Assembly: GCF_003018255.1 (NCBI RefSeq) | Contig: NZ_CP027440.1 | DNA length: 64,000 bases | Strand: one strand, 5' to 3' | Source: Escherichia coli | GTDB taxonomy: Bacteria; Pseudomonadota; Gammaproteobacteria; Enterobacterales; Enterobacteriaceae | Part shown: piece after piece, positions 36,270-36,480 of the stretch | How the letters are laid out: the number at the start of each line of letters is the position of its first letter | How positions within the stretch are numbered: position 1 is the first letter of the stretch | Translations under genes and position numbers: made by a program | Notes under the pieces: model-generated | Told to the model about the DNA's origin: nothing | Database searches by the model: none | What the model saw: only the letters and a program-made list of their open reading frames with translations

Positions 36270-36480
36270 GCTACAGTGCCCCAAATGTCGGATGCGGCGC
36301 TGACGCGTCTTATCCGACCTACAGGGAACGCATGTGTTGATCACATAATACGTTTATGTCGCATCCTGCACTGTCCCAAAATGTCGGATGCGACGCTGGC
36401 GCGTCTTATCCGACCTACGGGGACGCACGTGTAGGCCGGATAAGGCGTTTACGCCGCATCCGGCAATGGTGTCCAAATGC
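36270..36480. repeat. BIME: cluster of at least three REP palindromes
   Basis: Repeated tgtcggatgcgRcgctgRcgcgtcttatccgacctac units plus gtaggccggataaggcgtttacgccgcatccggca between convergent norW and hypF. Confidence 0.8.

Follow-up and report, generated by a model that had tools for sequence, protein, structure and literature searches.

REPs, BIME-2 arrays, their preference for spacers between convergent genes and the variation of their copy number among strains are textbook features of Escherichia coli. The REPs of this species fall into y (35 nt), z1 (29 nt) and z2 (37 nt) types, imperfect palindromes that follow a GTAG tetranucleotide and contain an AA/GC bulge (PMC8266576, PMC3333891). 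BIME-1 elements combine y with z1 and possess a long conserved L linker with an IHF site, and BIME-2 elements combine z2 with y, have short linkers and occur in tandem copies whose number varies with the strain (PMC3333891). REP325, the model element in experimental work, has been described as a partly Rho-dependent terminator or attenuator and mRNA stabiliser; the same work reports that ~60% of REPs lie between convergent genes, that 207 of 704 convergent pairs contain a REP, that convergent pairs with a REP show higher expression and that 78 REPs lie within predicted bidirectional terminators (bioRxiv 10.64898/2026.03.23.713779). Gyrase cleavage sites are enriched in BIME-2, mostly in the y REPs, and are found in only a subset of BIME-2 elements (PMC6379681).

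The locus considered here lies in a window of 64 kb, the whole stretch of E. coli chromosomal DNA that was analysed. The intergenic spacer between the convergent genes norW and hypF spans positions 36266-36488 (223 bp), and a 361-bp query that covers it (36200-36560) is 100% identical to E. coli strain 104 (NZ_CP029164). The RefSeq annotation of this strain and matches to the protein families NF003437 and TIGR00143 (Table 1) confirm both the gene names and the convergence proposed in an earlier, sequence-only reading of the window; the extent of hypF (2253 nt) was taken from RefSeq. The same reading had placed a dense REP cluster, or BIME, in a convergent spacer of about 220 bp, and this spacer does contain a 2 x 96-bp array. 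Tandem Repeats Finder reported it as the sole array, with a period of 96, 2.0 copies, 82% matches and a score of 261 (36279-36468). A repeat search further showed that the first halves of the two tandem units (36279-36327 and 36375-36423, 49 nt; direct-repeat family D1) share 92% identity, corresponding to the two near-identical units of about 50 nt that had been noticed, and that the second halves (50 nt; direct-repeat family D2) share only 74%. Many inverted repeats were also found in the spacer. The array is a tandem duplication of a 96-bp unit made up of a z2 REP and a y REP, in which the inner y has decayed.

Table 1. Features of the norW-hypF spacer, other REPs of the window and norW terminators of related genera; y* denotes the degenerate y REP.
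Feature	Position or locus	Strand	Basis or remark
norW (NADH:flavorubredoxin reductase)	35132-36265	+	NCBIfam NF003437, 683.9 bits; RefSeq annotation of strain 104
norW stop codon TAG	36263-36265	+	
BIME-2 as a whole, 2.0 copies of 96-bp [z2 REP + linker + y REP] unit	36279-36468	.	
z2 REP no. 1, 37 nt, GTAGGTCGGATAAGACGCGTCAGCGCCGCATCCGACA	36286-36322	-	0-mismatch half-motif match
Head-to-head linker no. 1, 13 nt, AGGGAACGCATGT	36323-36335	.	Sequence; in register with 36419-36430
Degenerate y REP (y*), GTTGATCACATAATACGTTTATGTCGCATCCTGCA	36336-36370	+	In register with intact y in tandem unit
Tail-to-tail linker, 11 nt, CTGTCCCAAAA	36371-36381	.	Homologous to norW-adjoining flank 36274-36285
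z2 REP no. 2, 37 nt, GTAGGTCGGATAAGACGCGCCAGCGTCGCATCCGACA	36382-36418	-	0-mismatch half-motif match
Head-to-head linker no. 2, 12 nt, GGGGACGCACGT	36419-36430	.	
Intact y REP, 35 nt, GTAGGCCGGATAAGGCGTTTACGCCGCATCCGGCA, AA/GC bulge	36431-36465	+	0-mismatch half-motif match
hypF stop codon TAA (reverse complement)	36489-36491	-	
hypF (carbamoyltransferase HypF)	36489-38741	-	TIGR00143, 1048 bits; RefSeq annotation of strain 104
y-like + z2 REP pair	7420-7499		Scan match 7463-7499; proX-MFS transporter spacer
z1-like lone REP	29780-29809		GTATG for GTAGG; inside srl operon, srlD-gutM
y (-) + z1 (+), head-to-head, 16-nt linker	43738-43772 + 43789-43818		hycI-ascB convergent spacer
norW terminator, Citrobacter + Intestinirhabdus	L010, L013, L017, L022, L028, L029, L035, L047, L050, L056		
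norW terminator, Enterobacter/Leclercia/Lelliottia/others	L019, L033, L034, L038, L039, L041, L052, L053, L057-L061, L066, L068		

The REPs were located with a scan for the half-motif GTAGGYCKGATAAG followed, after 3-15 nt, by a second half-motif, GCATCMGRCA. Seven REPs were recovered in the window, all of them in intergenic spacers, and three of these lie in the norW-hypF spacer, each with 0 mismatches; the same scan gave 0 matches in 100 Markov-1 simulated windows. The similarity to the REP consensus is thus perfect for three units, and these, together with one degenerate REP, agree with the count of at least three REP-type palindromes in the earlier reading. One form of the 1984 REP consensus, GCCKGATGNCGRCGY N5 RCGYCTTATCMGGCCTAC, returned 0 matches at up to 3 mismatches, a result that reflects a faulty query because of its extra N and fixed loop length and is not evidence against REPs. 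Consistent with their high-copy, dispersed and extragenic nature, 5,425 of 5,426 complete E. coli genomes contain matches to the spacer sequence at megablast stringency, with a median of 29 places per genome.

The elements follow one another in the order z2 (-), degenerate y (+), z2 (-), intact y (+), such that the orientation alternates along the array. The 5' GTAG at the foot of the palindrome is present in all three intact REPs of the spacer (in z2 REP no. 1 it reads on the - strand) and fails in y*, where it has become GTTG. In the predicted structures of these three REPs, the AA/GC bulge (GGAUAAG...CGCAUCC) leaves two unpaired bases on each side. Prediction of RNA secondary structure, a check named in the earlier reading, indicates that each intact REP folds strongly on both strands (-16 to -21 kcal/mol; z = -2.4 to -5.7). 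The hairpin of z2 REP no. 1, which has one A.C mismatch in its upper stem, is predicted at -20.2 kcal/mol for the + RNA and -16.2 for the - RNA (z = -3.7 and -2.4), that of z2 REP no. 2 at -20.8 (+) and -21.3 (-) kcal/mol (z = -3.7 and -5.7), and that of the intact y REP at -20.9 and -21.3 kcal/mol (z = -3.5 and -4.4). For the entire spacer, the predicted folding energies are -108.6 (+) and -113.1 (-) kcal/mol (z = -6.6 and -7.2). In the predicted fold of the full-length RNA, z2 no. 1 is paired with y over ~35 bp; such a duplex, if formed, could draw RNase III, in which case the mRNAs might be destabilised rather than protected.

Compared with the intact y, the degenerate y has 10 changes in 35 positions and a destroyed lower stem. 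Its predicted fold (-9.3 and -7.2 kcal/mol; z = -0.7 and +0.3) is no better than that of shuffled sequences. When compared with the y consensus using nhmmer, y* gives only E = 2.9 and the intact y gives E = 1.8e-6; the Rfam naRNA4 model aligns y* to its y half without indels and with 8 non-canonical pairs. The y* segment is present as a single copy per genome. The possibility that y* is a functional motif, with CRP/FNR-like half-sites or a hairpin of its own, was considered and rejected, as the spacing is wrong by inspection, the fold is no better than that of shuffles and the divergence is approximately neutral.

Two further candidate REPs at the edges of the spacer were also rejected. In the naRNA4 alignment to the norW 3' end (36239-36273), the match comes from the z2 half, and this stretch encodes the conserved NorW C-terminus. 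A hint that the hypF stop and last codons (36470-36498) represent a third REP remnant came from the repeat families D3/I8 and the Rfam CM alignment, but an nhmmer search with the y consensus places this segment at background level (E = 96), so it cannot be told from chance. On the - strand the hypF stop region (36470-36498), AACGGATAAAGCGTGTTGCATTTGGAC, looks like a y REP that has been cut short, its TAA stop lying within a GATAAG motif. The residues RWLA in the HypF tail are common to Citrobacter sedlakii and Intestinirhabdus.

The array has the inverted z2 and y composition of BIME-2 (z2 on the - strand, y on the + strand), its linkers are short (11-13 nt), and it occurs in tandem copies that vary with the strain (2.0 here; 1, 2 and 4 in E. 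coli; 3 elsewhere). The norW-hypF array is a BIME-2 (z2 + y) cluster of E. coli REPs. It resembles the BIME-2 elements described previously (Bachellier/Gilson; PMC3333891) in its alternating z2 and y, short linkers, tandem pairs, variable number and extragenic position between convergent genes. It differs in that only the hypF-proximal y is intact, the inner y being an old degenerate variant that has been co-amplified with z2. The tandem copies of a BIME-2 are usually described as well conserved; here the z2 halves are 92% identical and the y halves only 74%. The orthologous element is the REP pair in the 127-bp norW-hypF spacer of K-12 MG1655 (K-12 coordinates 2,835,046-2,835,172), which occupies the same site with the same z2 and y and a near-identical sequence. 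Relative to the single unit of K-12 MG1655, the array of the window is longer by a 96-bp [z2 + y*] unit adjoining norW.

The sequence-only reading had listed IHF binding among the functions of such sites; it is not expected here. The other functions on that list, mRNA stabilisation, gyrase binding and recombination, are known as properties of the family. That the array is an IHF-binding BIME-1 (a RIB/RIP element) is extremely improbable; y REPs are common to BIME-1 and to this array, but their partners here are z2 with no z1, the 11-13 nt linkers include no long L linker, and no IHF core WATCAANNNNTTR (at most 1 mismatch) occurs in 36266-36488.

Independent profile support for the REPs is provided by Rfam, in which naRNA4 (RF02564) matches the spacer at 49, 44 and 36 bits (E = 1e-5 to 9e-3 window-wide), the best of these being the intact y REP. 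The consensus of naRNA4 is one y REP and one inverted z2 REP of REP325 (yjdM-yjdN), a building block that REP325 shares with the norW-hypF array; REP325 consists of six units between tandem genes, whereas the array comprises two, lies between convergent genes and scores below the Rfam gathering threshold. These matches might suggest that the spacer houses a small-RNA gene in its own right, one of the naRNA4 (nucleoid-associated RNA) type. This reading is most improbable, since all spacer matches fall short of the gathering score of 59.5 bits and a match to a model built from one y + z2 unit restates REP homology. Moreover, there is no promoter-like site in the region, and no role in chromosome compaction was found for REP325/naRNA4 (bioRxiv 10.64898/2026.03.23.713779).

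The additional REPs that had been reported at 7418-7498, 29781-29805 and 43737-43817 are real, and their boundaries have been refined (Table 1). The pair in the proX-MFS transporter spacer (7419-7499), the y-like half of which is without GTAG, scores 60.0 bits with naRNA4 at 7419-7496, over the gathering score; automatic annotation would label it an sRNA gene, though it is merely a REP pair. Ordinary landmarks of the window in the Rfam scan include the MicA sRNA (16156-16227; 83.9 bits) and a cluster of five tRNA genes on the - strand (19141-19864), which are tRNA-Ser and four tRNA-Arg according to the matching RefSeq record.

The norW-hypF spacer is a natural VNTR across Escherichia. The one-unit allele (127-128 bp) is carried by K-12, O157:H7, O145 and G3/10 and makes up the remainder, about half, of 5,426 complete E. 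coli genomes. The two-unit allele (221-225 bp) is that of this window, AVS0973 and O121, and a four-unit allele (419 bp) is present in strain M19; counted jointly, the alleles with at least two units, which bear y*, are found in 1958 of 5426 genomes (~36%). The y* segment occurs at 2,047 places in these 1,958 genomes, from which it follows that some arrays have three or more units. An allele with no BIME (77 bp), exemplified by UPEC69 and ST38, accounts for ~684-732 of 5,426 genomes, or about 13%.

The no-BIME allele (L008 167-243, L009, L045) contains another GC-rich hairpin, CTCCCTCGCCC-AAA-GGGCGAGGGGACTGTCCGCGCTCTTTTT, which has a paralogue in the yjbD-rluF spacer (L071 285-338), CCCTCACCCTAACCCTCTCCCCGAAGGGGCGAGGGGACTGTCCGAGCTCTTTTT, and which may resemble the Box C repeat family. 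A remnant of the right half of y, TTACGCCACATCCGCCA, is kept in this allele, which therefore arose by replacement and does not represent an originally empty site. The C-terminus of its HypF (L008 244-270) reads ...AAARILHAA* and is 4 residues shorter than that of the BIME-bearing alleles (window 36489-36520). As the HypF C-termini differ between the alleles, the rearrangement of the spacer has reached the last hypF codons. A metagenome-assembled genome labelled 'Citrobacter sp.' (HRGM_Genome_0066) possesses two norW loci, the Citrobacter-like L046 and, on a 7.7-kb contig, L045. The latter is near-identical to the E. coli no-BIME allele, with a few substitutions (78 versus 77 bp), so the bin probably holds E. 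coli contamination.

The age of the array has been probed by comparison with other species. A scan with a norW 3' coding motif, using one genome per species, yielded 59 loci, among which Salmonella and E. fergusonii were not recovered. Three units, arranged as two copies of [z2 + y*] followed by [z2 + y], are found in the 320-bp spacer of E. albertii and the 323-bp spacer of Escherichia sp. E1V33. Because both have a three-unit array with y*, the array and its decayed inner y predate the split of E. coli and E. albertii, and the number of units has risen and fallen since then. In the 600 nt of norW and hypF that flank the array, third-codon identity between E. coli and E. albertii is ~0.90. 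By comparison, the intact y is identical at 35 of 35 positions, the z2 units are 0.92-0.97 identical, and y* is identical at 30 of 35. On these small numbers, y* appears to drift at about the synonymous rate, like neutral sequence, which makes it probable that part of the array is inert; the intact REPs seem to be conserved at least as well as synonymous sites, for which gene conversion is an alternative to selection, the numbers again being small.

These observations bear on the view that the array is a selfish or neutral passenger, a REPIN/BIME relic at a harmless site that has no host function and whose unit number drifts by recombination. The polymorphism for presence or absence and for 1-4 units and the near-synonymous rate of y* favour this view, as do the independent and different REP insertions at the same spacer in several Citrobacter species and the different GC-rich repeat at the site in the no-BIME allele. 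Conversely, the intact y and the z2 units are better conserved than third codon positions, an argument tempered by the fact that gene conversion with a genome-wide family could also give high identity. In unit 3 of strain M19 (L070 411-447) the upper stem of z2 has undergone a double change that preserves pairing (GACGC...GCGTC to GATGC...GCATC), and this compensatory change also speaks against a mere passenger; in unit 2 of M19, only one side of that stem pair has changed. Finally, with the ancestral intrinsic terminator gone from Escherichia, the 3' ends must be set by something else. Taken with this evidence on both sides, pure passenger status is a substantial alternative, though less likely than not.

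The terminator that is missing in Escherichia can be seen in related genera. In Citrobacter, the norW-hypF spacer is ~110 bp and contains at its end a canonical terminator, GCCCCGCCAGTCCCGGGGC followed by T5-8; some Citrobacter species (L021, L029, L040, L046, L047) have, near the norW stop, REP insertions of their own that are different and independent. In Enterobacter, Leclercia, Lelliottia, Silvania and others, a homologous GCCCCG-N-CCCGGGGC-T8 terminator follows norW even where hypF is not adjacent. Across many Enterobacteriaceae, a conserved stretch of ~40-60 nt precedes the norW terminator, GCCCCG-N4-6-CCCGGGGC with T5-9, and an Rfam search of the non-Escherichia regions downstream of norW returned no family. 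The norW terminator of these relatives is absent from all Escherichia alleles seen. In Citrobacter sp. NCU1 (L040), HypF ends in ...RWLNNRDMPDGDA*, and the sequence coding for this tail reads into a REP, with GTAGGCCGGATAAGACG abutting the stop; REPs can thus extend the reading frame at this site.

A consensus scan of both strands found no intrinsic terminator and no promoter in the norW-hypF spacer. The array contains GC-rich hairpins on both strands, and on the - strand an A-TTTT stretch comes directly after z2 REP no. 2, features that could be taken for a canonical bidirectional intrinsic (Rho-independent) terminator. Such a terminator is very unlikely: besides the negative result of the scan, five or more consecutive T are found after none of the hairpins, the longest run after a hairpin of the spacer being the TTTT just mentioned, and the canonical terminator of the other genera is absent here.

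The account that we consider probable as a whole is that of a BIME-2 REP cluster that originated by REP mobilisation, supplies 3'-UTR hairpins to both mRNAs and contains a plausible gyrase site. E. coli REPs are non-autonomous palindromic repeats whose family is linked to a tyrosine transposase, RayT/TnpA-REP, for which strand-specific binding and cleavage of REPs is the expected biochemical property. With regard to origin, the BIME-2 would have been seeded at norW-hypF by REP/BIME mobilisation. The [z2 + y*] unit may then have been gained and lost through recombination or slippage between direct repeats or through RayT-mediated strand transfer, and the inner y copies would since have drifted as neutral sequence. 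Cleavage and strand transfer by RayT/TnpA-REP is a model that fits both the origin of the array and its changes in copy number, as does simple recombination between direct repeats (PMC3333891). The array is similar to REPINs mobilised by RAYTs, in which an inverted REP doublet is the mobile or amplified unit and RayT is single-copy (Bertels & Rainey; PMC3116915), and differs in that REPs are still carried by the complete E. coli genomes without rayT, about one third of the total. A search with L069 3638-4135 as the query located rayT, always at ~1 copy, in 66% of the complete E. coli genomes (3574 of 5426), so that hundreds of REPs persist in about a third of the strains although rayT is lacking.

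With regard to function, norW and hypF are transcribed into the array from opposite sides, with no canonical terminator there, and the REP hairpins would act as 3'-UTR structures for both mRNAs. By analogy with REP325, a role as 3'-end hairpins of the two convergent mRNAs is most likely; given that transcription of both genes enters the array and that a canonical terminator is lacking, this role has the best support. The hairpins may attenuate RNA polymerase or bring it to a partial stop, perhaps together with Rho, and may block 3'->5' exonucleases, in which case the mature 3' ends would lie at the hairpin bases. The first hairpin begins 21 nt past the norW stop, and the y hairpin stops 24 nt short of the hypF stop. 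Ribosome stalling by REPs, reportedly studied by Liang, Rudd and Deutscher in 2015, is said to need a distance of at most 15 nt, so stalling is not expected at either gene. Any host function would be dispensable or dosage-tolerant, because ~13% of genomes have no BIME and 1-4 units occur without evident consequence.

The intact y REP is also a plausible DNA gyrase site, at which positive supercoils from convergent transcription would gather. According to the twin-domain model, positive supercoils gather between convergent genes. Both this convergent arrangement and the over-representation of cleavage sites in BIME-2, favouring y REPs (PMC6379681), could be taken to suggest that the main role is exerted at the level of DNA, with the array as a strong, transcription-independent gyrase site or topological insulator between norVW and hydN-hypF. 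We think it unlikely that this is the main role, as only some BIME-2 elements carry cleavage sites (PMC6379681), the Topo-seq supplementary text makes no mention of the norW-hypF locus, and the array has just one intact y. More generally, no locus-specific reports on transcript ends, half-life, gyrase, RayT or VNTR typing were found in the literature or its supplements. The preferred account, in which the array provides 3'-end hairpins for both mRNAs, retains gyrase binding as a plausible property of the y REP.

The BIME-2 at norW-hypF is real, was correctly interpreted in the earlier reading, and is of a known and ordinary kind. Mildly new, and only in a descriptive sense, are the series of norW-hypF alleles, the great age of the degenerate inner y and the lack in Escherichia of the ancestral norW terminator. 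A more far-reaching proposal, which we regard as speculative and improbable, is that in Escherichia the BIME-2 displaced the norW terminator and became the sole 3'-end former and protector of norVW and hydN-hypF, with the unit alleles acting as a dial. If this were true, the alleles (none, 1-4 units) would be a heritable dial on read-through and mRNA stability in two anaerobic-stress operons that face the array, norVW for NO detoxification and hydN-hypF for hydrogenase maturation. The discovery value is small; nevertheless, the locus is a clear case of a REP array where related genera have an ordinary terminator, and it offers a handy natural allelic series, from no BIME to 1-4 units, for the effects of REPs on convergent transcripts.
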